A stretch of 64,000 nt of DNA from Candidatus Forterrea multitransposorum CG_2015-17_Forterrea_25_41 (lineage in GTDB: Archaea; Iainarchaeota; Iainarchaeia; Iainarchaeales; CSSED10-239), in NCBI GenBank assembly GCA_009392915.1, contig CP045477.1:160001-224000 (forward strand). The letters are read 5' to 3'. The notes under the pieces are model-generated. The model was given only the letters and a program-made list of their open reading frames with translations. It made no database searches and had not been told where the DNA came from. Positions 6,462-50,972 of the stretch are shown piece by piece (positions within the stretch are counted from its first letter, which is position 1; every line of letters starts with the position of its first letter). A program made the position numbers and the translations under genes.

Positions 6462-6464
6462 AGT

Positions 6465-12037: not shown

Positions 12038-12038
12038 T

Positions 12039-28855: not shown

Positions 28856-28905
28856 AATATATCTCTTTTCAAGCAGGGGGTAGCTGGCCGAGTAAATTAA
28901 TTTAG
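28856..28905. repeat. GC-rich 50-nt direct repeat, copy R2, upstream of the antitoxin-toxin operon
   Basis: Identical to R1. Confidence 0.8.
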
Positions 28906-29904: not shown

Positions 29905-29942
29905 ATCTTATCTATTCTAGATATATTTTATATTTTTACAAA

Positions 29943-29982
29943 AATATATCTCTTTTCAAGCAGGGGGTAGCTAGCTGAGTAA
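29943..29982. repeat. GC-rich direct repeat, copy R3 (the first 30 nt identical, then agctgag in place of ggccgag), upstream of the yhcG-like gene
   Basis: aatatatctcttttcaagcagggggtagct is identical, followed by a variant tail agctgagtaaa. Confidence 0.75.
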
Positions 29983-30083
29983 AAAAGATTAAATTTTAAT
30001 TTCTATAGCCAATAACCTACATTAACATTATAAACTCTTTCTCTCTTAAATATATTATTAAATATAAAAAATAAGATTATATT

Positions 30084-36005: not shown

Positions 36006-38414
36006 TTATTCTATATTTAAATTTAAATTTTCAGTAATAGTTTGTTCTTGATCTGTCACTGATAATGTTATTGTGTGTTCTCCAACAGACAATGTTGAAA
36101 TATTAATATCACAATTATCTAAAGAATATTGATTATTATATAGTTTTGAAACATCTTCTTGATCTATTGCTTCATCAAAAATTAAAATATCATCCATTTT
36201 ACCATTAAAAAAATGATCATAAGTTCCAACAACTCCATTATAAGCTATAGCAGCACCAATTGCAACTGGCAAGCTATTTGATATTGATCCATAAGTTCCA
36301 ATAGGAACACTAGCATCAAGAATTCCATTAATATAAAAATTTAAATCTTGGTTGTCTTTATAAGACATAATAACATTATACCAATTATTTTGAGCATATA
36401 GAGAACCACAATTACTACAACTTTTATAGTTACTTTGAGCATCATCAATACCAGAATAAATATCCCAATTACTAGAAACATTATTAATCATTAATTGCCA
36501 ACCTGCATAACTTCCTCCGGCACCTCTTCCTCTAGTATTAATTATTCTTTGATATCCAGAACCAGTAGGATTTATCCATGTTGATACAGTAATTTCATCT
36601 AAATTTGAACTAATATTATTATCTAAAGTTGCATAGCTTGAAGTTCCATTAAAACTTAATGCATTATTTTCTCTTCCAAATCTGTCTGTTGTTCTAGTTA
36701 CATTAAATAAAGTTCCGTCAATATTCCCTATATTATCATAAATAGTATCTCCTGTAGTTTCTTCAAATCTATATTCTGCATATGGTTTTTGATATGTTAA
36801 ATTTCCATCAATTGATGATGCCCAAGAACAAGAATAATTTCCTACATTATTTGTAATATTTGTATCTATTTCTATATTATCTCCTAAAGTATATACATTT
36901 GAATCAATATTTATTTCTGCATTTAAAGATGGATTTTCTACAGTTATATTTTTTGTTTCAGTAATAGTTTGTTCTTGATCGGTCACTGATAAAGTTATGG
37001 TGTGTTCTCCAACAGACAATGTTGAAATATTAATATCACAATTATTTGAAGAATATTGATTATTATATAGTTTTGAAACATCAGAACTAGAAATTCCATT
37101 ATTAAAAATAATAATATCATCTAACTTTCCATTAAAAAAATGATTAAAAGTTCCATACACTCCATTATATGCAACTGATGTCCCAATTGCTGTTGGTAAG
37201 CTGTTTGTTATATTTCCATATGGATCTAAATTTACACTTTCATCTAATTGTCCATCAACATAAAAATTAAGATTATTATCTTCATCAAAAGACATAACAA
37301 AATGATACCATTTTCCAAGTGTCAAACTATTTCCACAAGTGTTACAACCAGTAAATGGACTTGTTGAAGAATCAACTCCTGAATAAAGATAAAAATTACT
37401 AGTTGTATCATTAATTAATATTTGCCATCCTTCAACATCTGAAGCTGCAGATCCTCTTGTGTTTATAATTCTCTGATATGTACTAGATCCATTTGATAAA
37501 AACCATCCTGATATTGCAAATCTATTAAGTTCTTGACTTATATTATTATCTAATAAAACATAGCTTGAAGTTCCATTAAAGCTTAAAGCCTTATTTTCTC
37601 TTCCAAATCTATCTGTAGTTCTTGTAATGTTATATCCATTACCATCAATATTACCTATTAAATCATAAATTATATTTCCTGAAGTTTCATTAAAATCCCA
37701 TCTTGCATAAGGTGTTTTACTTGGTATTAAGTTTCCATCAATTGATGATGCCCAAGAACAAGAATAACTTCCAACAGGGTTATTTACTTCTGATGTGAAA
37801 TTAATTGGTTCTGAAAATAAGAAAGAAGTTGCTTCTATTGGATTTGAAATATCTATAGTTGTCACAGTTTCTATTGGATTTAGATTTGGTCTTTCTTTTT
37901 GAAGATTTAATTTTTCAGAAGAATCAATTTCTCTTAAAAAACTTATTTTGTTTCTACTTATTTTTTTAATATAAATAATTGTTTTTGTGTTATTAAGATA
38001 TATTCCTTGTTCTATATCTATTCCATTGATGTCTAAACCAACAATTAATTTTTCAAATTCTCTAAAAGTATAAATTTCTCCTTCTCTAATTAATTGTCCT
38101 TCTTTATAATAATTTCCAGAAATATTATGAAATATTTCTATTTTATCTAAATTAGAATCTGCTTCAAAACTTAAACCATCAAGGTCTATTACAAAAGAGA
38201 CAACAGATCCATTTGAATTTTCTAAAACTTCTTGTATTTTTCCTTGAATTTCTTCAATATACATTCTAGATTCTTCAAATTTTTGTTGTGAATTATTTCT
38301 TTCAATTGCAGGAACAACTCCTTGATAAATAAGTCCTACAACAGCAACAATAATAAATATAACTAAGATATAACTTAAAATTTCAGAAGCTCCTCTCTGA
38401 TTTAGTCTTTTCAT
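36006..38414 (-). CDS. Giant pilin-signal adhesin (802 aa) with a class III signal peptide and two tandem [PKD-like + LamG/ConA-like lectin] units
   Basis: Signal MKRLNQRG|ASEILSYILVIFIIVAVVGLIY. Two copies of ...SYSCSWASSIDGNL...YARWDF.ETSG..IYD.IGNIDG.....TRTTDRFGREN.ALSFNGTSSY (LamG_3 signature). Each ends with the PKD-like GEHTITLSVTDQEQTIT. Confidence 0.7.
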   Translation of the reverse strand: MKRLNQRGASEILSYILVIFIIVAVVGLIYQGVVPAIERNNSQQKFEESRMYIEEIQGKIQEVLENSNGSVVSFVIDLDGLSFEADSNLDKIEIFHNISGNYYKEGQLIREGEIYTFREFEKLIVGLDINGIDIEQGIYLNNTKTIIYIKKISRNKISFLREIDSSEKLNLQKERPNLNPIETVTTIDISNPIEATSFLFSEPINFTSEVNNPVGSYSCSWASSIDGNLIPSKTPYARWDFNETSGNIIYDLIGNIDGNGYNITRTTDRFGRENKALSFNGTSSYVLLDNNISQELNRFAISGWFLSNGSSTYQRIINTRGSAASDVEGWQILINDTTSNFYLYSGVDSSTSPFTGCNTCGNSLTLGKWYHFVMSFDEDNNLNFYVDGQLDESVNLDPYGNITNSLPTAIGTSVAYNGVYGTFNHFFNGKLDDIIIFNNGISSSDVSKLYNNQYSSNNCDINISTLSVGEHTITLSVTDQEQTITETKNITVENPSLNAEINIDSNVYTLGDNIEIDTNITNNVGNYSCSWASSIDGNLTYQKPYAEYRFEETTGDTIYDNIGNIDGTLFNVTRTTDRFGRENNALSFNGTSSYATLDNNISSNLDEITVSTWINPTGSGYQRIINTRGRGAGGSYAGWQLMINNVSSNWDIYSGIDDAQSNYKSCSNCGSLYAQNNWYNVIMSYKDNQDLNFYINGILDASVPIGTYGSISNSLPVAIGAAIAYNGVVGTYDHFFNGKMDDILIFDEAIDQEDVSKLYNNQYSLDNCDINISTLSVGEHTITLSVTDQEQTITENLNLNIE

Positions 38415-38513
38415 AATTATTCTTTATTTTTAAATATATTTTACTAATATATTATATATGAAATCTTTATAAACATATTTAATCTATATTATATATACAA
38501 TACAAAATATTGT

Positions 38514-38586
38514 GGTCCGAATAGTGTAGTGGTTAGCATATGGGTCTGTGGATCCCATGACTCGGGTTCGAATCCCGGTTCGGACC
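38514..38586 (+). tRNA. tRNA-His (anticodon GTG)
   Basis: Anticodon arm TGGGT-CTGTGGA-TCCCA gives GTG. T-arm TCGGG-TTCGAAT-CCCGG. Acceptor GGTCCGA/TCGGACC. The exact 5' end and the acceptor/T-stem junction are ambiguous by 1 nt. A genomically encoded G-1 is possible. Confidence 0.7.
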
Positions 38587-38739
38587 CTCTTTATTCTTTT
38601 AAATTGTTTTAAAAATTATTTTTTCTATTTTTTTAAAAATATTTTTATATGTTTTGCCATTCATTTGTTTTTTTAAAAAAACAATCTATTTTTAAATCAT
38701 ATGATTTACTATATTTTTAAAATATAAAGGTGATATATA

Positions 38740-40188
38740 ATGCACGAAGATCTTTTTAACACCCTAAACCCACATCAAAAAGCATATATTAATTTTGAAA
38801 TTCCAAATGTTAAAAATGGAGAATATATGTTATGTGCTTTCCATTTAAGACCTGGAGGAGATTTAAATATCTTACAAGCAGCTTGTGAAACAGCAGCTGA
38901 ATCTTCAACTGGTACAAATTTTTTAGTAAACACAGAAACTCCTTTTGCAAGAGAGATGAATGCTTTAGTTTATAAATTAGATTTAGAAAAAAGTTTAGTA
39001 TGGATAGCATATCCTTGGAGACTTTTTGATAGAGGAGGAAATGTTCAAAATATCTTAACATACATTGTAGGAAATGTTTTAGGTATGAAAGAAGTTTCTG
39101 CAATTAAACTTTTAGATGTTTGGTTTCCACCAGCTATGCTTGAACAATACGATGGACCTTCCTATACTTTAGATGATATGAGAAAATATTTAGATGTTTA
39201 TGATAGACCAATTTTAGGAACAATTATAAAACCAAAAATGGGTTTAACTTCAGCAGAATATGCAGAAGCATGCTATGATTTCTGGGTTGGTGGAGGAGAT
39301 TTTGTTAAAAATGATGAACCTCAAGCAAACCAAGATTTCTGTCCATATGATAAAATGGTAAAACATGTAAAAGAAGCTATGGATAAAGCTGTAAAAGAAA
39401 CTGGTCATAAAAAAGTACATTCTTTCAATGTTTCAGCTGCAGATTATGATACAATGATTGAAAGATGTGAAATGATTGTTAATGCAGGTTTTGAAAAAGG
39501 ATCTTATGCATTTTTAATAGATGGAACTACTGCAGGTTGGATGGCAGTTCAAACTTTAAGACGTAAATATCCTGATGTTTTCCTTCATTTCCATAGAGCA
39601 GGACATGGAGCATATACAAGACCTGAAAATCCAATTGGTTTTTCTGTTTTAGTATTATCTAAATTTGCAAGACTTGCAGGAGCTTCTGGTATTCATACAG
39701 GAACTGCAGGTGTAGGAAAAATGGCAGGTACTCCAACAGAAGATATTACAGCTGCAACTGGTATTTTAAAATTAGTCTCAGAAGGACATATTTTCCATCA
39801 ATCATGGTCAACTGTTCCTGAAAAAGATTTAGATGTTGTAAAGCTTGCACAAGAGGATGAAGCTCATCATGTTATCTTAGAAGATGATAGTTGGAGAGGT
39901 CTTAAAAAATGTACTCCAATAATCTCTGGTGGTCTAAATCCAACTCTTCTTAAACCATTTATTGATTTAATGGGTGGAGTTGATTTTATAACAACTATGG
40001 GTGCTGGTTGTCATGCTCATCCAAAAGGTACACAAGCAGGCGCTAAGGCTTTAGTTCAAGCATGTGAAGCATACCAGAAAGGAATTTCTATTGAAGAATA
40101 TTCAAAAGATAGACCTGAGCTTGCAGAAGCTATTGAGTTTTTTACAAAGAAAAAGCATGTTGATAACTTAAAGAAGGAGTTTTCTTAA
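38740..40188 (+). CDS. rbcL: Ribulose-1,5-bisphosphate carboxylase, form III (archaeal nucleotide-salvage type), large subunit
   Basis: YINFEIPNVKNGEYMLCAFHLRPGGD...TGTNF, the catalytic Lys region GGGDFVKNDEPQANQ, and the loop-6 and C-terminal GGLNPTL..GGVDFITTMGAGCHAHPKG. Confidence 0.9.
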   Translation: MHEDLFNTLNPHQKAYINFEIPNVKNGEYMLCAFHLRPGGDLNILQAACETAAESSTGTNFLVNTETPFAREMNALVYKLDLEKSLVWIAYPWRLFDRGGNVQNILTYIVGNVLGMKEVSAIKLLDVWFPPAMLEQYDGPSYTLDDMRKYLDVYDRPILGTIIKPKMGLTSAEYAEACYDFWVGGGDFVKNDEPQANQDFCPYDKMVKHVKEAMDKAVKETGHKKVHSFNVSAADYDTMIERCEMIVNAGFEKGSYAFLIDGTTAGWMAVQTLRRKYPDVFLHFHRAGHGAYTRPENPIGFSVLVLSKFARLAGASGIHTGTAGVGKMAGTPTEDITAATGILKLVSEGHIFHQSWSTVPEKDLDVVKLAQEDEAHHVILEDDSWRGLKKCTPIISGGLNPTLLKPFIDLMGGVDFITTMGAGCHAHPKGTQAGAKALVQACEAYQKGISIEEYSKDRPELAEAIEFFTKKKHVDNLKKEFS

Positions 40189-40247
40189 ATTAATTTTTTT
40201 AAGAAAATCTTTTTCTTTTTTTCTTTGTTTTTTGGACAAGAGGTTTT

Positions 40248-40844
40248 GTGTTTATGCAGATAGATAAAAGTAAAATTTATTTTGAAACAGATCGTTTAAT
40301 AATAAGATTATTAAAGCCATCTGATGCTTCTGATATTTTTGAAAATTATAAGGATAAAGTATATTCTAAAAATATACCTAATCTTCCTTATCCTTATACT
40401 TTAAAACATGCAAATGATTTTATTAAAAAAAATAAATCTAAAATTAATAGAAAAAAAGATCCTGGAATTGAGTTTGCAATTTTTTCAAAAGAAGAAAATC
40501 GAGTTATTGGTGGTGCTTCTTTAAACCATATTGATTTTAAAAATAAAAAATGTGAAAGCGCTTCTTGTCTTTCAAAAAAATATTGGGGTAAAAAATATAT
40601 TTATGAAGCAAAGCTTGAAATCTATAAATATGCTTTCAATATTTTAAAATTAAATAAAATTTATGCTGATGTTTTTACTTATAATTTAAGAAGTAAAAAG
40701 CATTTAGAAAAGTTAGGTTTTAAGGAAGTCGGGCTTAAAAGAAAAGATATCTTCCATAAAAATAAGTTTATAGATCTTTACAGGCTTGATCTTTTAAAAG
40801 AGGAATTTAAGTATAAAGATTTAAAGAAAAATCTTCTTTCTTAA
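40248..40844 (+). CDS. GNAT-family N-acetyltransferase (RimJ/RimL-like)
   Basis: ETDRLIIRLLKPSDASDIFENY is the typical RimL N-terminus. The acetyl-CoA motif region is ASCLSKKYWGKKY. Confidence 0.65.
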   Translation: MFMQIDKSKIYFETDRLIIRLLKPSDASDIFENYKDKVYSKNIPNLPYPYTLKHANDFIKKNKSKINRKKDPGIEFAIFSKEENRVIGGASLNHIDFKNKKCESASCLSKKYWGKKYIYEAKLEIYKYAFNILKLNKIYADVFTYNLRSKKHLEKLGFKEVGLKRKDIFHKNKFIDLYRLDLLKEEFKYKDLKKNLLS

Positions 40845-40967
40845 TTTTTTTTTAATTTTTTAGAAAAATTTAAAAACTTTTCTAGAAAATATTTTTATTT
40901 TTTTTGTTACATTATATATTTATTAACAAAAACTATTTTTAAAAAAACAAAAAAAGGTGGTGTAACT

Positions 40968-41447
40968 ATGAAAAAATATACTATCTGGGATGAAATGAGA
41001 AGAATGCAAAGAGAGATGGATTCTTTATTTGATGACTTTGTTTATTCTCAAAAACCATATCTTCTTTCAGGTTCTAAAAAAGATGAAAATTCTTTAACTT
41101 CTTTAGAAAACTATAGAGAACCAGTTTGTGATGTTAAAGAAGATAATGATAAATATAATCTTTCTTTAGAAATTCCTGGTTCAAAAAAAGAAGATATTAA
41201 AATAAATGTAAATGATAACAACTTAGAAATAAAGGTTGAACATAAAAGTGAAGAAAAAAAAGAGGATAAAGAAAAAGGTTACTATAGCTATTCAAAAAGT
41301 TATTCTGGCTTTTATAGATCCTTCTCTCTTCCAAGAAATATAGATAAGGATAACATAGATGCAGAGTACAAGGATGGTGTCTTACATCTTAAACTTCCAA
41401 AAAAAGAAATATCTTCTTCTTTAAACAAGTTAATAGAGGTTAAATAA
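40968..41447 (+). CDS. hsp20: Small heat-shock protein (Hsp20/alpha-crystallin family)
   Basis: DVKEDNDKYNLSLEIPGSKKEDIKINVNDNNLEIKVEH...FYRSFSLPRNIDKDNIDAEYKDGVLHLKLPK is the alpha-crystallin domain. Confidence 0.85.
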   Translation: MKKYTIWDEMRRMQREMDSLFDDFVYSQKPYLLSGSKKDENSLTSLENYREPVCDVKEDNDKYNLSLEIPGSKKEDIKINVNDNNLEIKVEHKSEEKKEDKEKGYYSYSKSYSGFYRSFSLPRNIDKDNIDAEYKDGVLHLKLPKKEISSSLNKLIEVK

Positions 41448-41462
41448 TTTTTTTAACCTCTT

Positions 41463-42002
41463 TTATTCTTTAAGTAAATAATAAATATCTTTATCTAAGA
41501 TTAAGTTATTTACTTTTCCTAATTTTTCTTTTTTAATAATACCATTTTCTTCAAGTTTTAAAATTAGTCTATGAACTTTAATCTTTGATAACCCATCAAT
41601 ATATGTAAGTTCATATTGCCTTACTTTTCCATCATTTTCTAATATCTTTTCAATAATCTTTTTTTCATCTTTAGTTAAAAGATTAAGTATGGTTTTACTC
41701 TTAACATTAATATTTTTTTCTTTTTGATTAATTTCTTCAGATAAAAGATAGTAGATAAGTAACCCTACAAACATTCCAAAGAATGCACTAATAGGTATTA
41801 GATAAAAAGAATAATTTGATTTTTCTGGTTTATTTAACATCTGTTCTTTAAGTTCATCTATAGTATAAAGATCTATTGTTGTAATATCAATAGTATTCTG
41901 ACTTCTATTTATCTTTTGTTGTGCAGATAAAAATAAAAGAGTTGAAACTATTAATAATATAAAAGATAATAAGACAGCTAAGATAATTATTTTTTTGTTC
42001 AT
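41463..42002 (-). CDS. Membrane-anchored putative winged-helix DNA-binding protein
   Basis: Two TM helices, then LTKDEKKIIEKILENDGKVRQYELTYIDGLSKIKVHRLILKLEENGIIKKEK, which is MarR/TrmB-like wHTH. Confidence 0.4.
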   Translation of the reverse strand: MNKKIIILAVLLSFILLIVSTLLFLSAQQKINRSQNTIDITTIDLYTIDELKEQMLNKPEKSNYSFYLIPISAFFGMFVGLLIYYLLSEEINQKEKNINVKSKTILNLLTKDEKKIIEKILENDGKVRQYELTYIDGLSKIKVHRLILKLEENGIIKKEKLGKVNNLILDKDIYYLLKE

Positions 42003-42178
42003 AATAGATATATTGTTCTTTTCTGTTTTTATTCTTTATTGTTTATATATAGTTTCAGTTAATCAAACCATAGTTTCATAAAAGAGTATATATCGTTACA
42101 CTTATAATTATCTAGTACTTTAAAGGGTTTTTTTAAAAGTTTGTTAAAAACTTTTTAAAGTAAAATTAAAAAAAAAAG

Positions 42179-42613
42179 GTGAAAAAAAATATGAATAATA
42201 AAACAAAAATAATTGCCTCTATCCTTACATTGTTTAGTTTTCTTTTAGTTTTAGGAACAGTAAGTGCATACAGAGGAGATGTAACAAAGCTAGGTCCAAA
42301 CTACGATCCTGTAGTACATGCAAATATGCAATTTGCAATTGAAGCTGGAGATTATCAAGCTTGGAATGATATTGTTTCTTTAAGAGATAATAATTCAAAG
42401 ATAACTACATATATAACAGAAGAAAACTTTGAAGAATACAGTAAAGCATACCTTTCTGCTTTATCAGGAGATTCATCTTCTTTACAAGAGTTTAGAGCTT
42501 CTTTAGGTTTAGGCCAAGGTAATCAATATAGAGGATCTAATAAAGGTTCTTTAAATGAAAACTCTAATTCTTTAGGTCAAAAGAAAATGAATAGATACAA
42601 CTCTACAAATTAG
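42179..42613 (+). CDS. Small secreted hypothetical protein
   Basis: Signal peptide MKKNMNNKTKIIASILTLFSFLLVLGTVSA. Confidence 0.35.
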   Translation: MKKNMNNKTKIIASILTLFSFLLVLGTVSAYRGDVTKLGPNYDPVVHANMQFAIEAGDYQAWNDIVSLRDNNSKITTYITEENFEEYSKAYLSALSGDSSSLQEFRASLGLGQGNQYRGSNKGSLNENSNSLGQKKMNRYNSTN

Positions 42614-42765
42614 TTTTTTTTAATAGGTTATAAAAATTAATTAAGATTATTTATTTAATCTTTTTTTCTTTTATAAGTTCTTTTTTTAAATGTATTTATG
42701 CTTAATTATATTATTAGTTTATAATTCTATTTTTCTTTTAAGAAGAATATTTTATATGAATTTTT

Positions 42766-42837
42766 GCTTCTGTGGCTCAGTGGTAGAGCGCAACCTTGGT
42801 AAGGTTGAGGTCGCGGGTTCGACTCCCGCCAGAAGCT
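42766..42837 (+). tRNA. tRNA-Thr (anticodon GGT)
   Basis: Acceptor GCTTCTG/CAGAAGC, D-arm GCTC-AGTGGTA-GAGC, anticodon arm CAACC-TTGGTAA-GGTTG, T-arm GCGGG-TTCGACT-CCCGC. Confidence 0.85.
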
Positions 42838-42995
42838 TGATGCACAAAAATAACTAATTTGTGCATTTGAAATATACTTTTTAATCTTTAATTATACCAA
42901 ATTATATGCATTTATAAATAGATTATAACGGACTTATAATCTTTTAGTAAAAGACTATATTTAAAAACATTTCTGTTATATATTATATTAGTGAT

Positions 42996-44267
42996 TTGTA
43001 TATGGATAAAGATTTTTTAAGAAATGTTATTACTGATCAATATGAAGATCTAAAAGATGTTTCTAAAACGGTTTTAAGATATGATTTAAAAGAAATAACA
43101 TCTTTTGTAGAAAATCCTGCAATTTCAATAATTTCAGGAATTAGAAGATGTGGAAAATCAACTTTTTTAGAACAAATAATTAACCTACATTATAAAGATG
43201 ATTTTTATTATTTTGATTTTTCAGATGAAAGAATTTCAAGATTTCAAACAGAAGATTTTCAAAAACTATATGAAGTATTTTTAGAAAAATTTGGAAAAAG
43301 AAAAGCATTTTTCTTTGATGAGATACAAGAAGTTCCAGATTGGAATAAATTCGTAAATAGAATGAATAAAATAGGCTATAAATGTTTTGTTACTGGTTCA
43401 AACTCAAATTTATTAAGCAAAGAATTATCCACATACCTTACAGGAAGACATATAGATAAAGTTTTATTTCCATTTTCTTTTAAAGAATATTTAGTATATA
43501 AAAATATAAATATTGACTTAGATTCTACAAAATCAAAAACCTTAATTATTAAAGAATTTAAAAATTATTTTAAATTAGGGGGTTTTCCAGAAGTTGTTTT
43601 AACAAATGACACTTCAATTTTATTAAATATTTATTCAGATATTATTTCAAAAGACATTATTGAAAGATTTAAAATAAATGATATTTCTCTATTTAAAGAA
43701 TTTTGTAATTATGTTATATCTTTATCTACAAATGAATTTACTTATAAATCATTAAAAGATAATTTTAAAATTCAAAATATAACTACTGTTTCAAATTATC
43801 TTGATTATTTAAAACTTACATATCTTGTTTATGAAGTTAAAAGATTTTCTCCTGCTTTACAGAAATTAAATAAATTTCCAAAAAAATATTATTGTATTGA
43901 TAATGGGTTATTAAATAAAGTTGGTTTTGGATATTCAATAGAAGAGAGTAGATTTTTAGAAAATCAAGTTTTTATTGAACTTTGGAGAAACAATTTAAAT
44001 TCTGAAATTTATTATTATAGAAATAAAGATAATAAAGAATGTGATTTTTTAGTATTAAATAACAGAAAAGTTGCTAAAGCTATTCAAGTTTGTTATGCTT
44101 TTAAAAAAGCAGAAACAAGAAATAGAGAAATTGAAGGTTTATTATCTGCTTTAAAAGAATTTAATTTGTCTTTTGGAGAAATTATAACCTTTGAACATAA
44201 AGAAAGATTAGAAATTGAGGGTAAAATTATAGAAATGATTCCTATCTATGAGTGGTTATTAAAATAA
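42996..44267 (+). CDS. AAA-family ATPase with a DUF4143-type C-terminal domain, common in archaeal mobile or defence contexts
   Basis: Walker A GIRRCGKSTF and Walker B FFFDEIQ. The C-terminal DUF4143-like region includes KECDFLVLNN. Confidence 0.65.
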   Translation: MYMDKDFLRNVITDQYEDLKDVSKTVLRYDLKEITSFVENPAISIISGIRRCGKSTFLEQIINLHYKDDFYYFDFSDERISRFQTEDFQKLYEVFLEKFGKRKAFFFDEIQEVPDWNKFVNRMNKIGYKCFVTGSNSNLLSKELSTYLTGRHIDKVLFPFSFKEYLVYKNINIDLDSTKSKTLIIKEFKNYFKLGGFPEVVLTNDTSILLNIYSDIISKDIIERFKINDISLFKEFCNYVISLSTNEFTYKSLKDNFKIQNITTVSNYLDYLKLTYLVYEVKRFSPALQKLNKFPKKYYCIDNGLLNKVGFGYSIEESRFLENQVFIELWRNNLNSEIYYYRNKDNKECDFLVLNNRKVAKAIQVCYAFKKAETRNREIEGLLSALKEFNLSFGEIITFEHKERLEIEGKIIEMIPIYEWLLK

Positions 44268-44289
44268 AAAATGAGCGCTTTTAACCTAA

Positions 44290-44312
44290 GGTTTAGTTCC
44301 TGCCAGAAGCTT
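44290..44312 (+). repeat. Partial direct copy of the 3' end of tRNA-Thr (ggtttagttcctGCCAGAAGCTT, with the last 11 nt exact). Candidate attR of an integrated element whose attL is tRNA-Thr at 42766-42837.
   Basis: Fifteen of the last 15 nt of tRNA-Thr (tcccGCCAGAAGCTt) are matched 14/15, and the T-arm remnant ggtt..tcc is matched partially. It lies 1.45 kb downstream of the intact gene and brackets the DUF4143 ATPase. Confidence 0.55.
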
Positions 44313-44313
44313 T

Positions 44314-44342
44314 GAACCGGTTTCGCTCGGTTCACGCGCAAT
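44314..44342 (+). ncRNA. Hairpin motif copy 2, GAACCG-gtttcgct-CGGTTC followed by ACGCGCAAT
   Basis: Same architecture as 12039-12070, with fully compensatory stem changes (CAACTG/CAGTTG versus GAACCG/CGGTTC). Confidence 0.4.
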
Positions 44343-44350
44343 CTTTAAAA

Positions 44351-44379
44351 GAGCTGGTTTCGATCAGTTAACACGCAAT
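44351..44379 (+). ncRNA. Hairpin motif copy 3 (degenerate), GAGCTG-gtttcgat-CAGTTA followed by ACACGCAATGG
   Basis: The loop GTTTCGAT and the tail ACACGCAA are conserved. The stem is partly degraded. Confidence 0.3.
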
Positions 44380-44402
44380 GGTTCTTCTTTTTCTTCTAGA
44401 AA

Positions 44403-45170
44403 TTAAGCTTTTCTGAACAATAAAAATCCAATTGTAATTAAAAATAAAGCAATACAAATAGATGCAGCAGTAATTATTTCAGGATATTGATTATTAAAAC
44501 CAACAGAACTTGTATGCTTAATAATAATCCCAAAATATGCCCACGCAAAAACTAAAATATAAGCAATATCTCTATTTCTAACACTGGTTAAAATACCAAT
44601 AATAGAACCTACTAAAAGAATAGCAATTGTCCAAATACTTTCACTAATACCAAAACCATTCCATCCAACACTAACAAGAAAAGCTGTAATATTTGCAATT
44701 GTTGCAACTGTTATCCATCCAAAGTAAATACTAAATGGAAGGGATAAAAAGAAAAAATCTTTAGACTTATTTTCTCTTATTAGTAAATTAATTTTAATTA
44801 AACAAAATAATATACCTAGCATAAAGATTATAGATACCCATAATAAACCATAATGCCAAGAAAAGATCCATAATGCATTAGCTACAGAACTTATAATAAA
44901 ATAAATACTTATCTTGTTTAATAATTTATTTTCTTTTAAACTAATTTTTTTAAAAGTTTCAAATTGATATAAAACAAATAAACCTAATAACAAATAAATT
45001 ATACCCCAGATAGAAAAAGTAATTCCTGCAGGAGCAAATAAGTTAGGATATAGGTCAGAGACAGCCCCTGTATCAATGTTATTTATTGGCAGGGCATTAG
45101 CTAAATAATTAACTACAATCATTACTATATAGACTAATGCTACAAAAATTTTTCTTAATATAAAATTCAT
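44403..45170 (-). CDS. Polytopic membrane protein, possibly related to the TspO/MBR tryptophan-rich sensory protein family
   Basis: YLANALPINNIDTGAVSDLYPNLFAPAGITFSIWGIIYLLLGLFVLY resembles the TspO N-terminal motif. The length (255 aa) is atypical. Confidence 0.3.
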   Translation of the reverse strand: MNFILRKIFVALVYIVMIVVNYLANALPINNIDTGAVSDLYPNLFAPAGITFSIWGIIYLLLGLFVLYQFETFKKISLKENKLLNKISIYFIISSVANALWIFSWHYGLLWVSIIFMLGILFCLIKINLLIRENKSKDFFFLSLPFSIYFGWITVATIANITAFLVSVGWNGFGISESIWTIAILLVGSIIGILTSVRNRDIAYILVFAWAYFGIIIKHTSSVGFNNQYPEIITAASICIALFLITIGFLLFRKA

Positions 45171-45316
45171 AATTATTTCTTAAACCAAAACATATTTATA
45201 TGTTATTTCTTAAATATTTTTTTAAAATTAATCTACAAATATTTTTTAACTTAAGTTTTTAGCTAAAATTTTAATAATTAATATTTTTTAAAAATACATC
45301 TCTATTTATATTTTTT

Positions 45317-45784
45317 TTGTTTTATTTCTTAATTATGGCAACAAATAAAGCTGTAAAAGCAATAATCTTTAATAAAGATAATCAAATGTTAATTTTAAAA
45401 AGAACTCCTCTTTATAAAAGAAAAGGCAAAATTAATGTTTTAAAAAAATATGCACATTTAGATAAAAAAAATATATATGATCTCCCTGGTGGAAGACTTG
45501 AAATAAATGAAACTATCAAAACTGGCCTTAAAAGAGAAGTTTTTGAAGAAACAGGACTTAAAATTAAAATCTTAAAAAAAGTAAGTTCTTGGGAATTTAT
45601 TTCTTTAGATAATAAAAAAGTAGAAGTGACTAATTTTCTTTGTGAAATTAAAAAGAATACTTCAAATAAAATAATTTTAAGTCAAGAACATGATAATTAT
45701 AAATGGGTTGATCTTAAAAATATTAAAAGATATAGTTTTAAAGATAAAAGTTTTTTTGATTCTTTAAAATTTTTATCTAAATAA
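45317..45784 (+). CDS. NUDIX hydrolase
   Basis: Nudix box LPGGRLEINETIKTGLKREVFEETGL (GX5EX7REUXEEXGU). The true start is probably at MATNKAVKAII (45338). Confidence 0.75.
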   Translation: MFYFLIMATNKAVKAIIFNKDNQMLILKRTPLYKRKGKINVLKKYAHLDKKNIYDLPGGRLEINETIKTGLKREVFEETGLKIKILKKVSSWEFISLDNKKVEVTNFLCEIKKNTSNKIILSQEHDNYKWVDLKNIKRYSFKDKSFFDSLKFLSK

Positions 45785-45814
45785 TTTTTTAAAGAAAAAA
45801 AAAGAAAAGAAGAA

Positions 45815-48013
45815 TTATCTATATGTTTCATCTATATAGCTAATATCTTCTCCAATAACAACTTCTGTTTCTTCTTGACTTGTAAAGTTATATGTCTTTA
45901 ATAAATTATTAGTTATAGTATACAATTCATCTCCAATATATAAACTTCTAGCAATAGATCCATAGTAATATCTATTTTTCTTTGTGTGATCAATAGTTGT
46001 TATTTTACTAATACCATCTTTATCTGCTTTTAAAACAACAAATCCAAACTCAGAAGATGATGTATTATATCTTTCAGTAATAGGAAGTACAACTAAATTA
46101 TTCTTTGAAATATATAAGAATGCTTTATGATCGTAAGATACTTGTGTATTTGAATAACTTGCACTTGAAACCCATTTTCCAACTTCTTTAGGATTTGAAA
46201 AATCACTTACATCAAACAAAGCAACCTTAACTCCAGAATTATTAGTTCCACCCCATTCATTAGCTTCAGTTTCTTGACCAATACCTAATATTAAATTTTC
46301 AGATATTGGATGAAGATAATCAGAGTAACCTGAAATTTTTAAATAACCTAGAACTTTTGGTTTTGTAGGGTTTTCTAAATCAATTACAAAGAAAGGATCA
46401 ACTTGTCTGTATGTAACTAAATAAAGTTTATCTCCCATAAATCTAGCACTATATATTCTTTCATTTGGTGCAATTTCATCAACAATTCCAACTTCATTTA
46501 AAGAACTATTTAAAACTGTAACTGCATTTTTTGAAATAGTAGAATATCCGTTGTAATCTTGATAAGTTGTTGCAACTCTTAAATAACCTTCTTCTTCATC
46601 TAATGAAAATTGATTTAAAAGTTTTCCTTTAACTTCTCCTTGTGATATACTTCCAAAGCTACCATCTAAAAGAAGTTCAATTCTGTTAATGTATGTTTTA
46701 TCATATTGATTTCTTTCTTCTTGATAATATTTATCAGATTCTTCTTGTATTAAATTATATAATTCTTCTTTTTCTTCTTTGTCAAGAGTTTGATAGTAGT
46801 TATTTAATATTTCAATTAATTTTTCAGAATCATTTAAATTACTTTCAATTTCTTTAGCTATATTTGTAGGATATACTTTTTCATAGATTGATTCAAAAAC
46901 TAAATCTTTTGAATAGTTATTCCATCCAAATCTAAAGAAAGGATAATACATATTTTTTTCAGTTACAACATATAGGTTATTATTACTCATATATATTGTA
47001 TTTGAATTATCAAGTATGATTTCTATACTATCAATAATTGAAGATTCTTTTTCTAAATAATTAAGTGAAGTTAAATTATACATTACTTTAGATTCTTCAC
47101 TAACATCTCTTGGCATAATTATTTTAGATTCAAAATTACTTACAACATCATTTTTAATTTCTTTAACAGGCATTATAAATCTATCATAATAGATGTTAGG
47201 GTTAAAATCATATAGATAATCATTAGTTATAATATATACAATTCCATCTTTCATTCTTGATTGATAGTAGTTGCCTTTAATTTCTACGCTGTTAAGTTTT
47301 GAAAGAGAATTTTCTTCTATTCTATAAGTTTCAACAACAGTAAATGGTATATAAGTCATTTGAGGATAAAGATAAGAATATTGAGTAAATTTACTTTCTA
47401 CAATATTTTTTTCAATTATTACATATAAAAGGTCTTCTGTATCTAAGAACATTCCTTTAATTGTTAAATATTCTGCATTTTGATCATTAATTTTAACAGT
47501 ATATTTTTCTTCATCAGCTATAGGAACATCAACATCATTTATTACTGTTATTGTTTTGTCTTTTGCAATAAATATTTGTTTTCCATTAGTTTTTACAATA
47601 TCTCCTTCATCTATACCAGAAACTTGTACATTAGTTTGAGAAAAATCATTTTCAGCTCCTGTTGATTGAACAGAACTATCAGTTGCCATAATAGGCATTG
47701 ATTCTTCCATGGTTTTAGACATATCTCCTACTCTAATACTATTACTTGAATTAGTGGTAGTTAAAAGAGTTAATAGTTCTTGGGAGGTAATTGTTACAAA
47801 TGGTGATTCTTCATTTGTTTTAAAATCACTATATGTTAAATTTTCATAGTTTTTTTCTGTTGATTGATCACTAAGATATTCATCTTGGTTATCATCTATT
47901 ATTTTATTTTTTAAAATATTTTGATTAATTACAAGTCCAACAACTAATAGTGCAAGAACAAGTATTATAATCCCTAAAAATAAATTTGATTTATTTTTCA
48001 TATATCTTTTCAC
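45815..48013 (-). CDS. Large secreted, membrane-anchored hypothetical protein (732 aa), possibly with a beta-propeller domain
   Basis: N-terminal TM anchor LFLGIIILVLALLVVGLVI. Long beta-rich Asn/Tyr-rich sequence. The domain assignment is tentative. Confidence 0.3.
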   Translation of the reverse strand: MKRYMKNKSNLFLGIIILVLALLVVGLVINQNILKNKIIDDNQDEYLSDQSTEKNYENLTYSDFKTNEESPFVTITSQELLTLLTTTNSSNSIRVGDMSKTMEESMPIMATDSSVQSTGAENDFSQTNVQVSGIDEGDIVKTNGKQIFIAKDKTITVINDVDVPIADEEKYTVKINDQNAEYLTIKGMFLDTEDLLYVIIEKNIVESKFTQYSYLYPQMTYIPFTVVETYRIEENSLSKLNSVEIKGNYYQSRMKDGIVYIITNDYLYDFNPNIYYDRFIMPVKEIKNDVVSNFESKIIMPRDVSEESKVMYNLTSLNYLEKESSIIDSIEIILDNSNTIYMSNNNLYVVTEKNMYYPFFRFGWNNYSKDLVFESIYEKVYPTNIAKEIESNLNDSEKLIEILNNYYQTLDKEEKEELYNLIQEESDKYYQEERNQYDKTYINRIELLLDGSFGSISQGEVKGKLLNQFSLDEEEGYLRVATTYQDYNGYSTISKNAVTVLNSSLNEVGIVDEIAPNERIYSARFMGDKLYLVTYRQVDPFFVIDLENPTKPKVLGYLKISGYSDYLHPISENLILGIGQETEANEWGGTNNSGVKVALFDVSDFSNPKEVGKWVSSASYSNTQVSYDHKAFLYISKNNLVVLPITERYNTSSSEFGFVVLKADKDGISKITTIDHTKKNRYYYGSIARSLYIGDELYTITNNLLKTYNFTSQEETEVVIGEDISYIDETYR

Positions 48014-48180
48014 CTTTACTTTTTTATGTAAAATTATTATTAATAAGTATTCTATGCTCTAAAGTCAATATAAACCCTATTTTTTAGTTAGGTTATTTCC
48101 TTTTTATAGTTTATTTTAATTTTAAGTTATTTTTATTTGTTAAAGATTGTTTTTTAAATTATTTGTAACATTTATATTCT

Positions 48181-49008
48181 ATGCATTTTTATATTATTGA
48201 GTTTGTTATAATAATTTTATTTATACTTACTTTAATTCATTTTAGAAAAAATAAGCGATTTTTAATATTTTCATTTATTTTTGCATGTCTTTTTGAAATA
48301 TTTGGAGTCTTTATTTCAGGTTATCTTTATTCTAATGATTTTTTAATAAATATTTATGGTGTTCCAATTTTTATAATTTTATCTTGGGTTATTATTCTAA
48401 CCACATCTTATAACTTAATTTCAACTATAACAAATCATAAATTAACAAAAGCTATTTTAGTATCATTATCAGCAACTGCTTTAGACTTAGTTTTTGAAGC
48501 ATCAGCTGTTTTTCTAAATTTTTGGACTTGGAAAGTAACAGTTCCAAATATTTTAGTAAGTATTGATCCAGCTAATTTTATTGGATGGATGATTGTAAGT
48601 TTTTGTTTTGTTTACTTATATGAGCTAAATTATAAAGCAGGTATGCTTTTTTCTTTTCCTTTTTATGTTTTTTTAGGGATATCTTATAAAATAATATATG
48701 ATTTAATTTTTAAAAATAGTAATATTGATCCTTTTTTCCCTTTCTTTCTATTATTTACTTTTGTTTTTGTTTTGGCAGTTTATTTATTATATAAAAATTA
48801 TAAATTTTCTAAAAATAATCTTTGGTGGTACTCTTTTCTTTTAAGAGTGCCTTTTTTGATATTTGGAGTTTTCTTTTCAATAAAATTTAAACTATTTATT
48901 GATAATTATATTTTACTTTTTATAGTCATGGGACTTTTAATAGAAATTGTTTTCTTATATCTTAGTTTCTCTTATAAATATAATAAATTTAAAAAACATA
49001 TGAAATAA
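48181..49008 (+). CDS. Polytopic membrane protein (275 aa), unknown function
   Basis: About 8 hydrophobic helices. No motif recognised. Confidence 0.3.
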   Translation: MHFYIIEFVIIILFILTLIHFRKNKRFLIFSFIFACLFEIFGVFISGYLYSNDFLINIYGVPIFIILSWVIILTTSYNLISTITNHKLTKAILVSLSATALDLVFEASAVFLNFWTWKVTVPNILVSIDPANFIGWMIVSFCFVYLYELNYKAGMLFSFPFYVFLGISYKIIYDLIFKNSNIDPFFPFFLLFTFVFVLAVYLLYKNYKFSKNNLWWYSFLLRVPFLIFGVFFSIKFKLFIDNYILLFIVMGLLIEIVFLYLSFSYKYNKFKKHMK

Positions 49009-49075
49009 AATTCATTTATAAACCTTACTTCTCATATTTATATATACAATATAATTTTGTGAGAGGTAAATTAAT

Positions 49076-49441
49076 ATGAATTCAAATAAACAAAAAAAAA
49101 TTAATTTTTTAATTAAAATTAATACTTATTTTTTAGCTGCTTTGGTGCTTTATGCAGGAATAAATAAATTATTTATAAATGGAATTGATGGTGTTATTGG
49201 TATGCTTACAGGAGCAGGTTTCTTTTTACCAGTGTTTTTAGCATGGGTTTTAGTTATTTCAGAAATCGGTTCAGGTATAATGCTTTTTACTGGTCTTTAT
49301 AAAAAGTATGTTGTTTTAGTTCCAGCATTTATAATGATTGTGATCACTTTTACAATAGCTTTTGGTAATTGGCAAAGTATGATACAACATTTATTAATAG
49401 CATCTAATTATTTACTTATAGGTTGTATTTCCTCTAAGTAA
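49076..49441 (+). CDS. DoxX-like small membrane protein
   Basis: Four TM segments with the LYAGINKLF...G..G..G pattern typical of DoxX. Confidence 0.4.
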   Translation: MNSNKQKKINFLIKINTYFLAALVLYAGINKLFINGIDGVIGMLTGAGFFLPVFLAWVLVISEIGSGIMLFTGLYKKYVVLVPAFIMIVITFTIAFGNWQSMIQHLLIASNYLLIGCISSK

Positions 49442-49532
49442 TTTTCTTTTTTTTATTTCTTTATTTTTTGGACAGAATCTATTTAAAAACCTTTAGAAAT
49501 ATAATTATTTCATAAAACGGAGTTGATATTTT

Positions 49533-50126
49533 ATGGTTGTTAAACAAAATGATTGGATTGAAGTTGAATATACTGGAAAGCTTAAAGACGGTAATATTTT
49601 TGATACTTCAAAGGGAAGAGAAACCTTAAAATTTAAGGTTGGAACTGGTATGGTTATTCCTGGTTTTGATGCAGCTGTAATAGGTATGGATGAAAATACT
49701 GATAAAGATTTTACTATCCCTTTTGCAGAAGCTTATGGACCAAAAAACACAGAAGCAGTTGAAATCCCTAAAACATCTTTTAAAGATGTAACTAATTTAG
49801 AAAAGGGTAAAAGTTATAATTTTATGACAGATATGGGTCCTATAAAAATTGATGTTGAAGAAGTTTTAGATGAAAAAATTAAGGCAACAGTAAATCATCC
49901 TTTAGCTGGTGAAGACTTAACTTTTGAAATAAAACTTGTAAAAATTTTATCTCCAGAAGAAGCTAAATCTTATGAAGATGCATTAATTGCTCAACATCAA
50001 AATCATGAACATGCTCATTCTGATAAAGAAGGTTCTTGTGCATGTGGAGATCCTGATTGTGAATGTGATGATGATTGTGATTGTTCAGATTCAAAAGATT
50101 CATGTGGTTGTGGACACGATCATTAA
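49533..50126 (+). CDS. slyD: FKBP-type peptidyl-prolyl cis-trans isomerase (SlyD-like) with a His/Cys/Asp-rich metal-binding tail
   Basis: VEYTGKLKDGNIFDTS...KFKVGTGMVIPGFDAAVIGM is the FKBP core. The insert-in-flap region and C-terminal HQNHEHAHSDKEGSCACGDPDCECDDDCDCSDSKDSCGCGHDH are present. Confidence 0.8.
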   Translation: MVVKQNDWIEVEYTGKLKDGNIFDTSKGRETLKFKVGTGMVIPGFDAAVIGMDENTDKDFTIPFAEAYGPKNTEAVEIPKTSFKDVTNLEKGKSYNFMTDMGPIKIDVEEVLDEKIKATVNHPLAGEDLTFEIKLVKILSPEEAKSYEDALIAQHQNHEHAHSDKEGSCACGDPDCECDDDCDCSDSKDSCGCGHDH

Positions 50127-50153
50127 TTTTTTTAAAATAAATAGGATATATTT

Positions 50154-50684
50154 ATGAATAAGTTTCTACATTTATTTAGAAAATTTTCTGCATATATCTT
50201 ATTTATTTCTACTTTACTTTCTTTTATTTTTTCTGAAAATGAATTTTTAAGTATTTTATTTGTATCAATTGCTTTCGTTGCTTTTTTTAAAATAAATATT
50301 TTTGAATTATTTAAAAATAAAAGATATTTATCAAAATTAGAATTATTCTTCTCAATTTTATTATTTGTAAAAGTAATTTTATTATTTGATGTAAATATTT
50401 TTTATAAATATTTAAGTTATTTTTTTGGTTTTTTCTTTTTAATAGTTTATTTTTTATTTTTTTCAAATACACAAAATATTACTACAAATATCTTAGGTGT
50501 TAAGAAAGATAAGGCTTCTCAAGAAGATGATCTTGAAGATTATGACAATTATGAGGATGATTCTCAAGAAGTAGAAGAAGATTCTGATTTTGAGTTAGAA
50601 GATGATTTTGAAGAAGATGAAGATAATTTAGAAGAAGATGAAGATGATTTAGACGAAAATGAGGATATTTCTAAAAAACATTAA
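50154..50684 (+). CDS. Membrane protein with a strongly acidic C-terminal tail
   Basis: Three to four TM helices, then EDDLEDYDNYEDDSQEVEEDSDFELEDDFEEDEDNLEEDEDDLDENED. Confidence 0.3.
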   Translation: MNKFLHLFRKFSAYILFISTLLSFIFSENEFLSILFVSIAFVAFFKINIFELFKNKRYLSKLELFFSILLFVKVILLFDVNIFYKYLSYFFGFFFLIVYFLFFSNTQNITTNILGVKKDKASQEDDLEDYDNYEDDSQEVEEDSDFELEDDFEEDEDNLEEDEDDLDENEDISKKH

Positions 50685-50745
50685 AAATAATTCCTTTATA
50701 TTTTTTTTGCTTCTATATTATATTATACTTGTTATTAAAAAAAAA

Positions 50746-50827
50746 GCAGGGGTTCCCGAGTGGTCAAAGGGGCACGGCTAAGAACCGTGTGCTTAGTGCT
50801 TCGCAGGTTCGAATCCTGTCCCTTGCA
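50746..50827 (+). tRNA. tRNA-Leu (type II, long variable arm, A73). The anticodon loop reads CTAAGAA, giving an apparent AAG anticodon.
   Basis: Acceptor GCAGGGG/CCCTTGC (one G-U pair), D-arm CCC-GAGTGGTCAAA-GGG, anticodon arm CACGG-CTAAGAA-CCGTG, 13-nt variable arm, T-arm GCAGG-TTCGAAT-CCTGT. A34 is unusual for archaea and needs confirmation. Confidence 0.65.
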
Positions 50828-50843
50828 TTATATTTTTTTAAAT

Positions 50844-50917
50844 GCTCGAATAGTGTAGCCCGGTAATCATATCAGACTCTCACTCTGATGACGGGGGTTC
50901 GAATCCCCCTTCGAGCA
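50844..50917 (+). tRNA. tRNA-Glu (anticodon CTC)
   Basis: Acceptor GCTCGAA/TTCGAGC, D-region GTGTAGCCCGGTAATCATA (typical archaeal Glu), anticodon arm TCAGA-CTCTCAC-TCTGA, T-arm GGGGG-TTCGAAT-CCCCC. Confidence 0.8.
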
Positions 50918-50972
50918 CTTATAATATTTTTTAAAAATCTATTTAATAACTTAAATTTGTAATTACTTAATT

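Follow-up and report, generated by a model that had tools for sequence, protein, structure and literature searches.

A putative recombinase-less, single-gene cassette at the 3′ end of a tRNA-Thr gene in Candidatus Forterrea multitransposorum

Introduction

The DNA examined here (the window) is a stretch of 64,000 nt from Candidatus Forterrea multitransposorum (positions 160,001–224,000 of contig CP045477.1, assembly GCA_009392915.1), in which the segment 42839–44312 is an insertion at the 3′ end of an intact tRNA-Thr(GGU) gene, contains one complete gene, for an AAA_14/DUF4143 ATPase, and ends in a sequence of some 40 nt, designated here R, that also follows many unrelated genes in other archaea. 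With a probability of about 0.65, we interpret this segment as a recombinase-less, single-gene integrative cassette that docked at the tRNA end and was moved by a recombinase encoded elsewhere. The cassette would comprise its own promoter/operator region, an intact ATPase of the PDC-S01 type and a terminal recombination site, R, a cassette-side attachment site composed of a motif (M) and a mimic, with an internal deletion, of the 3′ part of tRNA-Thr. Site-specific recombination at the tRNA-Thr(GGU) 3′ end, with the crossover probably falling within GCCAGAAGCTT, would have kept the tRNA intact and displaced the old flank, with its hairpins, 1,474 bp downstream. Sites of the R type likewise bound many other small cassettes, for defence, toxin-antitoxin, resistance or transport functions, in related AT-rich, DPANN-like archaea, where cassettes accumulate as same-orientation arrays that a tRNA-Thr gene can head.

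In DPANN archaea, genomes are tiny, and CRISPR systems, restriction systems and recognised mobile elements are scarce. They are also enriched in compact, single-gene defence candidates (PMC12988326). If defence genes do travel as recombinase-less cassettes docking at tRNA-Thr and stacking into arrays, this would explain how these archaea exchange defence and niche genes, R would be a concrete sequence signature for finding the flexible gene pool in metagenomes, and a tractable target could be named, a recombinase plus its tRNA-like substrate. For the window itself, a repeat beside a tRNA would become an insertion event that is dated and polarised and whose empty site is known.

A 1,474 bp Insertion at the 3′ End of tRNA-Thr(GGU)

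The tRNA-Thr(GGU) gene (42766–42837, plus strand), which would be both the resident attachment site and the array head, is intact according to ARAGORN and to Rfam (74.2 bits), as stated in the preliminary description of this region, and identical genes are found in loci L002 and L003 (the L numbers designate the comparison sequences). Like the other tRNA genes of the window, it has no encoded CCA. Its last nucleotides form the left direct repeat (42824–42838, plus strand), which spans the 3′ strand of the T-stem, the 3′ strand of the acceptor, the discriminator and one further nucleotide. This 15-mer, TCCCGCCAGAAGCTT, is matched in 14 of 15 positions at 44298–44312, with 11 nt exact, and has no other site in the window with two or fewer mismatches; the exact 11-mer, GCCAGAAGCTT, is found at 42828 and 44302 and nowhere else in the 64 kb, for an expectation of 0.03, and none of 100 shuffled sequences reached two occurrences. 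The likeness extends beyond these positions: from the T-stem onward, 18 of 23 nt are identical between the tRNA end and the right copy, and the repeat continues in 5′ direction as a degenerate copy of tRNA positions 22–35 (GAGCGC-TTTT-AACCT-AAGG, 44273–44291). The repetition of the tRNA 3′ end at 44290–44312, from which an integrated element had first been suspected, is therefore real and well above background frequency.

Only 11 nt of the repeat are exact, the rest being degenerate, and Rfam does not call a tRNA when scoring 44273–44312, as might be expected of a chance likeness or of a decayed tandem tRNA-Thr pseudogene with no relation to the ATPase. This explanation is effectively refuted by the repeat statistics, by the existence of an empty site that lacks exactly the bracketed segment, and by the finding of the same site behind the same gene in other genomes.

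The empty site was sought by scanning metagenome contigs for a direct junction of the intact tRNA 3′ end with the hairpin that now lies downstream of the insert, which recovered two loci, L002 and L003; the same pattern had no match in the one-genome-per-species contigs of GTDB. Contig L003 (NPID01000025.1) is syntenic with the window, with the tRNA genes for His, Thr, Leu and Glu in the same order and flanks that are 89–97% identical. In this contig, tRNA-Thr is directly followed by tAGAACCGGTTACGCTCGGTTCACGCGCAAT, a GAACCGG...CGGTTC hairpin, and then by a gene for a 255-aa protein, and both the ATPase and the second tRNA-like copy are absent. A blastn comparison of L003 with the window delimits an insertion of 1,474 bp (42839–44312, plus strand), so that two proposals of the preliminary description were borne out, that of an element inserted at the attachment site of a tRNA and that of a particular empty site. 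Likewise, since the hairpin (hairpin 1) is found directly 3′ of tRNA-Thr in L003, it is older than the insert and represents the previous flank, differing from the present trailer of the tRNA, as had been proposed. In the window, hairpin 1 and its tail (44314–44342, plus strand; stem in 44314–44333) read GAACCG-GTTTCGCT-CGGTTC-ACGCGCAAT.

Locus L002 (Ga0334898_1000022), whose flanks are 97–98.7% identical to those of L003, has a different insert at the same place, with a gene for a 427-aa ATPase (46% identical to that of the window) and a glyoxalase-like fragment; this insert is bracketed by hairpin repeats of 19–21 nt and not by the tRNA end. In L098, an ATPase of the L002 type is followed by an R copy, GAGCGCTTTTAACCTTTGGTTAAATTCCCGCCAGAAGCTTT, that directly abuts the 255-aa gene. 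The interval between tRNA-Thr and this gene is hence a hotspot with at least four states: empty in L003, with the window ATPase (A) plus R, with the L002 insert, and with the second ATPase (B) plus R in L098. Its right anchor, the 255-aa gene (44403–45170, minus strand), is TspO-like according to the source names of its homologs and was matched in exact-protein look-ups, which returned no match for the 423-aa ATPase ORF (open reading frame) or the 144-aa ORF upstream of the tRNA, owing to start-codon choice. Among remoter homologs of the 255-aa gene (L097 and, in part, L098), synteny with the tRNA is lost.

Other differences were seen around the hotspot. The glyoxalase-like ORF of L002 (1565–1938, minus strand) is broken by an in-frame TGA (KRIC*NNSV), corresponding to a pseudogene or to a recoded stop. 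Immediately upstream of tRNA-Thr, L003 has an extra ORF of 338 aa (5971–6987, minus strand) that is missing from the window and from L002, so that the upstream side of the tRNA is variable as well; it has no significant family assignment (GLE1-like, E 0.0049, under the Pfam cutoff), and family searches ruled out that it encodes a reverse transcriptase or an integrase. A second presence/absence polymorphism lies 1.5 kb from the hotspot, where a gene for a 732-aa beta-propeller protein (45815–48013, minus strand) is absent from L002 and L003, whose flanks join position 45785 to 48108.

The Insert Contains an Intact ATPase Gene of a Defence-Candidate Family

The insert has the same G+C content as its surroundings (24.9% across the window). 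It starts with 163 nt of non-coding DNA between the left attachment site (attL) and the ATPase gene, whose stop codon is separated from R by 5 nt. As initially described, the only content with a family match among ORFs of at least 40 aa is the AAA_14 plus DUF4143 ATPase (43002–44267, plus strand; 421 aa), with no integrase. The mechanical ORF begins at a TTG (42996); the ATG at 43002 is the start in all homologs and in the gene call of the Joint Genome Institute (JGI). The product matches the PADLOC profile for PDC-S01 over its full length (PDLC04787, E 5.1e-105; residues 25–423 against positions 10–408 of 412). PDC-S01 is a single-gene defence candidate, with an AAA ATPase fused to a PD-(D/E)XK domain and with unvalidated antiviral activity, that is enriched in Archaea; additionally, multiple PDCs are enriched in DPANN (PMC12988326). 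The cargo is therefore a likely defence ATPase, as judged from this family membership. It has no sequence relative in PDB and no NCBIfam match, and the wider family includes 256 plasmid and 18 phage-like records, all with 38% identity or less.

The ATPase is intact and under purifying selection. Its length of 421 codons is maintained in nine of nine close loci, with dN/dS values of 0.03–0.24 (0.09–0.22 for the window gene against eight homologs), and a set of 121 homologs has invariant Walker A (GxRRxGKST) and Walker B (FFFDEIQ) motifs as well as invariant E, ExDF and IQV motifs in the nuclease-like domain. Degeneration of the nuclease motif (QVC for ExK) was considered and discarded, because the Q is invariant in the 121 homologs and is thus the norm of the family, not decay.

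Upstream of the gene are the promoter-proximal palindromes ATTATAAcggacTTATAAT (42922–42940) and TCTTTTAGTAAAAGA (42940–42954), both on the plus strand (42922–42954 in all) and found by comparison of upstream regions; the first is the palindrome that had been placed at ~42928–42946, whose presence was correct and whose position was not. In the window, L088, L092 and L094, the ATPase start is preceded, ~50–100 nt before it, by the pattern TCTTTT-N3-AAAAGA, often duplicated 32 nt apart, with degenerate versions in L004, L084 and L095. It is probably an operator and a candidate for autoregulation.

Close relatives of the ATPase (72–87% identity) were found in nine different contexts, with R located within ~8 nt of the stop codon in seven of them. 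This recurrence of an ORF-plus-promoter unit in nine unrelated contexts, none with an integrase, together with the intact and selected ATPase, does not support the notion of a decayed element.

The R Site Belongs to a Family That Follows Unrelated Genes

The R site of the window (44273–44312, plus strand; nhmmer E 5e-6), which includes the right direct repeat (44298–44312), consists of the M motif GAGCGCTTTTAACCTAAGG (44273–44291) and a segment similar to tRNA-Thr from the T-loop to the discriminator, GGTTTAGTTCCTGCCAGAAGCTT (44290–44312). As a family, R is ~40 nt long and contains M, with the form (A/T)GCGCTTTTxACxTxxxGG, and a tRNA-like segment ending in ...AGAAGCT or ...GGAGCT. Because M resembles tRNA-Thr positions 22–35 (GAGCGC^AACCTTGG, with the caret marking the site of an additional TTTT), R has the appearance of the 3′ two-thirds of tRNA-Thr with an internal deletion.

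A loose regular expression for M was too unspecific in AT-rich DNA, and we used instead an nhmmer profile built from eight R copies. The profile found new copies in loci outside of its training set (L094, L095, L096, L098 and L100–L105) and more in L004, and homologous R sites are thus known from L004, L088, L094–L096, L098 and L100–L105. Their distribution follows that of genes: 19 of 25 R sites lie 0–40 nt past the stop codon of an ORF, for ~6% expected, and all are on the same strand as the preceding ORF except the L098 copy, which is on the minus strand of its locus and co-oriented with the ATPase ORF before it. The partial tRNA copy, taken at first for a relic of integration, is instead a member of a conserved site family that follows many unrelated genes. 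R is not a general terminator in these sequences, since there is only one in the 64 kb window and none at the core genes of L096, and it has no family in Rfam.

The tRNA-like part of the window R is more similar to that of L098 (20 of 23 nt) than to the local tRNA (18 of 23), and has a CCTG change in common with L004. This closeness to R sites elsewhere indicates that R arrived with the cassette, unlike in the L088, L094 and L095 arrays, where its type goes with the array; the crossover must then lie in the shared GCCAGAAGCTT.

R-Bounded Genes Form Arrays and Change Neighbours

R is also found behind unrelated genes in same-strand arrays (L004, L088 and L094–L096). In the L094 array, seven or more genes in a row lie on the same strand, each with R or a variant of R behind it, among them genes for an abhydrolase, an ATPase, an APH, a deformylase-methyltransferase, a second ATPase and a radical SAM protein. 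The arrays in L095, L088, L004 and L100 are similar, with cargo that includes NYN, GNAT and HicAB-like genes and a Zn-ABC operon.

A tRNA-Thr heads the array in L096 (GCA_964617775.1), in the order tRNA-Thr(CGU), directly after it an ATPase gene whose product is 84% identical to that of the window, R, two small ORFs, R, and another ATPase gene. The 23-mer GGTTCAATTCCCGCCAGAAGCTT occurs there three times without mismatch, in the tRNA end and in both R sites (0.00 expected). L096 thus contains a second, independent junction between a tRNA-Thr gene and an ATPase cassette, whose nucleotide position matches that of the window junction.

The ATPase cassettes from L088, L094 and L095 are 94–95% identical in DNA and have different neighbours, which are NYN and GNAT in L088, abhydrolase and APH in L094, and Zn-ABC and NYN in L095 (upstream and downstream, respectively). 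Homology among these cassettes extends from just past the upstream ...GGAGCT to around the stop codon. An NYN gene that is 76% identical between two arrays precedes the ATPase in one of them and follows it in the other. Cassettes are, therefore, shuffled among neighbours. As the integrase-less unit recurs in nine contexts and R follows unrelated genes, the small unit would appear to be the native mobile unit and not a wreck.

Two or three divergent paralogs of the DUF4143 ATPase are often seen per array (L094, L095, L096 and L100), as with the three tandem ATPases of 421, 437 and 433 aa in L100 (569–4934).

Could the ATPase move itself, with its PD-(D/E)XK-like DUF4143 domain cutting tRNA-like targets for a homing-like spread? 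It is the sole protein encoded in the insert, is represented by these paralogs in several arrays, has invariant acidic and Q residues in the nuclease-like domain, and belongs to a family that is common on plasmids. Self-mobility is nevertheless very improbable, given that unrelated cargo (NYN, GNAT, APH, abhydrolase, radical SAM, Zn-ABC and HicAB) has the same R boundaries, that the family is classed as a defence candidate (PMC12988326), and that the frequency of ATPases in the arrays is biased by their retrieval through the ATPase. Also, a tRNA is near the ATPase in only three of 80 homolog loci from GTDB, L005, L025 and, ~700 nt off, L008; L005 and L025 have no repeat of at least 10 nt.

The third of these loci favours self-mobility in that a distant homolog lies there between partial tRNA copies. 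L008 (4867–7030), from a metagenome-assembled genome (MAG) of Thermoplasmatales, has a tRNA-Arg(UCU) gene, which adjoins EF-1alpha/S10, followed by a MazF toxin-antitoxin pair, a copy of the tRNA 3′ end (20 of 23 nt), an inverted ATPase gene (40% identical) and another copy (19 of 23 nt). Both partial copies are closer to each other than to tRNA-Arg, having common changes that are absent from the tRNA, and no integrase was found in the locus. Small recombinase-less cassettes bounded by tRNA ends are therefore not limited to one lineage or to one tRNA.

Searches for a Recombinase and Alternative Origins of the Insert

Searches for a recombinase gave consistently negative results. As in the insert, there was no integrase among ten window ORFs of 250–450 aa, among the Pfam matches precomputed for the array loci, or beside any of the nine ATPase contexts. 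Fragments of a split integrase, as produced by SSV-type elements, were not seen beside attL or the right attachment site (attR), where no ORF is available. An intI gene was likewise missing from the head of the arrays, where the upstream genes encode a 144-aa protein without family match (window) and a SpoIIM-like protein (L096). Viral contigs from IMG/VR contained no relative of the ATPase, no R of the L094 type and no tRNA-Thr 3′ end; one match to a degenerate R (L099) was dismissed as due to chance, being inside a coding region with no tRNA nearby. Finally, neither the ~100 loci fetched nor IMG/VR contained a related autonomous, integrase-bearing element with the same attachment site. Since there is no recombinase in the cassette or beside the arrays, we infer that it would act in trans, encoded by the host or by another element.

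The insert could alternatively be what remains of a larger virus, plasmid or island that integrated into tRNA-Thr with its own integrase and then lost everything but the ATPase. An intact tRNA with a partial 3′ copy and an existing empty site is the classic attL/attR arrangement, and R retains ~50 nt with traces of the tRNA (positions 22–73), a typical length for an attachment site. Archaeal tRNA-integrated elements of 9–23 kb do leave partial tRNA genes (PMC9897764), and islands of degraded tRNA-integrating elements are known (10.1101/2020.12.28.424599). However, independent decay would need to have ended at identical ORF boundaries in seven or more contexts (~100–250 nt upstream, and R within ~8 nt of the stop), while leaving an ATPase that is intact and under purifying selection and no integrase or integrase fragment near any of its copies. 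Besides, the adjacent cassettes likewise consist of one small gene apiece with an R of its own, and no viral contig was found with the ATPase, R or the tRNA end. A remnant origin is hence improbable in our estimation.

Several results weigh against a mobile cassette with a dedicated recombinase. In the loci searched, no recombinase was identified and recombination at R was not observed. The type of R (L088-type or L094-type) goes with the array or host, even with ATPases that are 95% identical, so that a simple attachment site (attP) borne by the cassette does not explain the pattern. The length of the direct repeats varies (15, 19–21, 25 and 99 nt), and in L084, as well as in L085–L087, the ATPase is flanked by perfect direct repeats of 99 nt, with no R and only an M-like remnant; at the ATPase locus L092, R and repeats are both absent. 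L003 might owe its empty site to a secondary deletion instead of representing the ancestral state. Likewise, the composition of the arrays is biased, because they were retrieved through ATPase homologs, and the comparison loci are all metagenome or MAG contigs, in which repeated R sites could yield misassemblies.

Some of these data would fit a hotspot of homologous or microhomology recombination without a dedicated recombinase, which would use the tRNA end, the hairpins and the R/M repeats, including Campbell-type insertion of circles with a piece of the target in them. The repeats vary from 15 to 99 nt, with a perfect 99-nt pair in an ordinary protein gene in L084, and an R type that follows the array is what gene conversion or duplication of a resident site would give; also, a hairpin and not the tRNA end brackets the L002 insert. 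With repeat lengths that vary and R types that are array-specific, a homology-driven mechanism is still in play, and we regard it as unlikely but by no means negligible. Against it, homologous recombination would have to act on very short identities of 11–15 nt, the junction has the same location, just past the discriminator, in two different tRNA-Thr genes, and the conservation of M beside the junction across unrelated cargo and hosts suggests a protein-binding site.

The repeats in L084 (3993–4091 and 5542–5640) bound an ATPase gene whose product is 87% identical, located in the 3′ end of the reverse transcriptase (RT) gene of a diversity-generating retroelement. They regenerate the end of the RT reading frame, with bAvd and RVT_1 upstream and HicBA downstream.

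Comparison With Known Mobile Systems

The locus lacks a defining feature of each of the systems with which it was compared: an integrase, an attC/IntI pair, or Xer-type sites. The cis-mobilizable elements (CIMEs) of streptococci and the pdif modules of Acinetobacter plasmids are recombinase-less units, flanked by attachment sites, that are moved in trans, pdif modules by the host XerC/XerD. They are akin to the window cassette in being small site-bounded units without recombinase, presumed to depend on an enzyme encoded elsewhere. In contrast, CIMEs obtain the integrase from known integrative and conjugative, or integrative and mobilizable, elements with which they have attachment sites in common, and a partner of this kind was not found here among ~100 loci or in IMG/VR. 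Modules of the pdif type have inverted 11-6-11 Xer sites and alternate in orientation, whereas R sites are tRNA-like direct repeats with no 11-6-11 dyad.

With elements targeted to tRNA genes in archaea and bacteria, including archaeal gene capture, such as PYG1 of Pyrococcus yayanosii, with 44-bp repeats (PMC9897764), the cassette has in common the insertion at the 3′ part of a tRNA that is left intact, a partial 3′ copy at the far end, and presence or absence among relatives. Conversely, archaeal elements of this class are of 9–23 kb or more, with a present or former integrase, and those of the SSV type have an integrase gene that is split by integration, whereas here there are 1.47 kb with one non-recombinase gene and no integrase fragments; moreover, the attachment-site copy has a conserved M motif and an internal deletion, and the unit recurs as such. 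The tycheposon islands of Prochlorococcus (10.1101/2020.12.28.424599) are also similar, with few tRNA anchors, older material pushed inwards, scattered partial tRNAs, adaptive or defensive cargo, and hosts with streamlined genomes. Tycheposons, however, encode a tyrosine or serine recombinase themselves, often along with replication genes, and their partial tRNAs mark degraded elements, whereas every unit seen here is without recombinase and most are single genes, in one orientation and with a conserved M plus tRNA-like end.

Integrons, including those of archaea (10.1101/2022.02.06.479319), present same-orientation arrays of mostly single genes, a site-like repeat after each cassette, the same cassette with different neighbours, and cargo for toxin-antitoxin, resistance and defence functions, as do the R arrays. 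These arrays differ in having no IntI at the head, which is a tRNA and not an attI, in that the type of R follows the array and not the cassette, and in that the cassettes appear to have their own promoter region. R was also rejected as an integron attC: of 27 sites, none had both cores (RYYYAAC/GTTRRRY) and none had RYYYAAC, and minimum free energy (MFE) folds were inconsistent, without a consistent imperfect hairpin. The likeness to PDC-S01, with a full-length match and AAA_14 preceding DUF4143, concerns the presumed function of the cargo and not its mobility.

It is conceivable, though on balance doubtful, that DPANN-like archaea possess a distinct, integron-like capture platform, which would operate at tRNA-Thr 3′ ends and at earlier copies of the site with a tRNA-mimicking site and a host recombinase encoded elsewhere. 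Small cassettes with promoters of their own, most of them single genes for defence, toxin-antitoxin, resistance or transport, would be taken up successively. If so, archaea with reduced genomes would have a route to the turnover of accessory and defence genes that does not depend on resident machinery of mobile elements.

Hairpins and Other Features of the Window

The present trailer of tRNA-Thr, at the left end of the insert, contains a hairpin, TGCACAAAAATAACTAATTTGTGCA, followed by TTTGAA (42841–42865, plus strand; fold z −4.35 and −3.48). The left end of the L002 insert has a conserved counterpart with compensatory changes, as does a stretch of L088 that contains no gene and is flanked by two R sites.

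Downstream of the insert, hairpin 1 is followed by a second tandem copy, hairpin 2 with its tail (44351–44379, plus strand; GAGCTG-GTTTCGAT-CAGTTA-ACACGCAAT), which is absent from L003 and is identical in 26 of 31 nt to a hairpin located behind an M motif inside the L094 array. A third member of the family, with compensatory changes in the stem, lies 1 nt after tRNA-Gly (12039–12066, plus strand; CAACTG-GTTATGCT-CAGTTG-ACACGCAA). The sequence ACRCGCAA is found in three places only in the window, all of them in members of this hairpin family (0.1 expected). Because such hairpins occur behind M in L094 and bracket the insert in L002, the GAACCG...CGGTTC type also acts as, or derives from, a junction site. 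More speculatively, the order of its parts (stem, 8-nt loop, 7 nt, A) is reminiscent of a T-arm with the 3′ strand of the acceptor.

The trailer (12038–12135) of the tRNA-Gly gene (11966–12037) consists of the family hairpin, with ACACGCAA, then a longer hairpin, AAGCUUGCAGG...CUUGCUAAGCUU (MFE −26.1 kcal/mol, z −2.3), and a U-run. The fragments downstream of this tRNA had been considered as relics of an anticodon arm, which was discarded after folding showed two hairpin arms and then the U-run. The trailer may function as a terminator or as a co-transcribed small RNA, or else be the relic of a junction site, and neither it nor the hairpins correspond to a family in Rfam.

The gene content of the window points to an archaeal chromosome, including form III RuBisCO, HSP20, DUF7343, Kae1, an archaeosine tRNA-guanine transglycosylase (TGT), a protein with an SRP54-type GTPase domain and the tRNA genes lacking an encoded CCA; the low G+C content and the organism names attached to related records suggest a DPANN-like lineage. 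The region 36403–53170 is 100% identical to part of a JGI metagenome contig of 663.6 kb (L001). From the precomputed annotation of this contig, an ORF of 840 aa (52402–54924, minus strand) has Intein_splicing and LAGLIDADG_3 matches and is an intein-containing gene. At 28897–31298, a gene for a YhcG/DUF1016 PD-(D/E)XK nuclease (minus strand) adjoins that for a PDDEXK_1/DUF2800 protein, which together may form a defence or mobile islet; a DUF1016 gene is also located upstream of the cassette array in L088.

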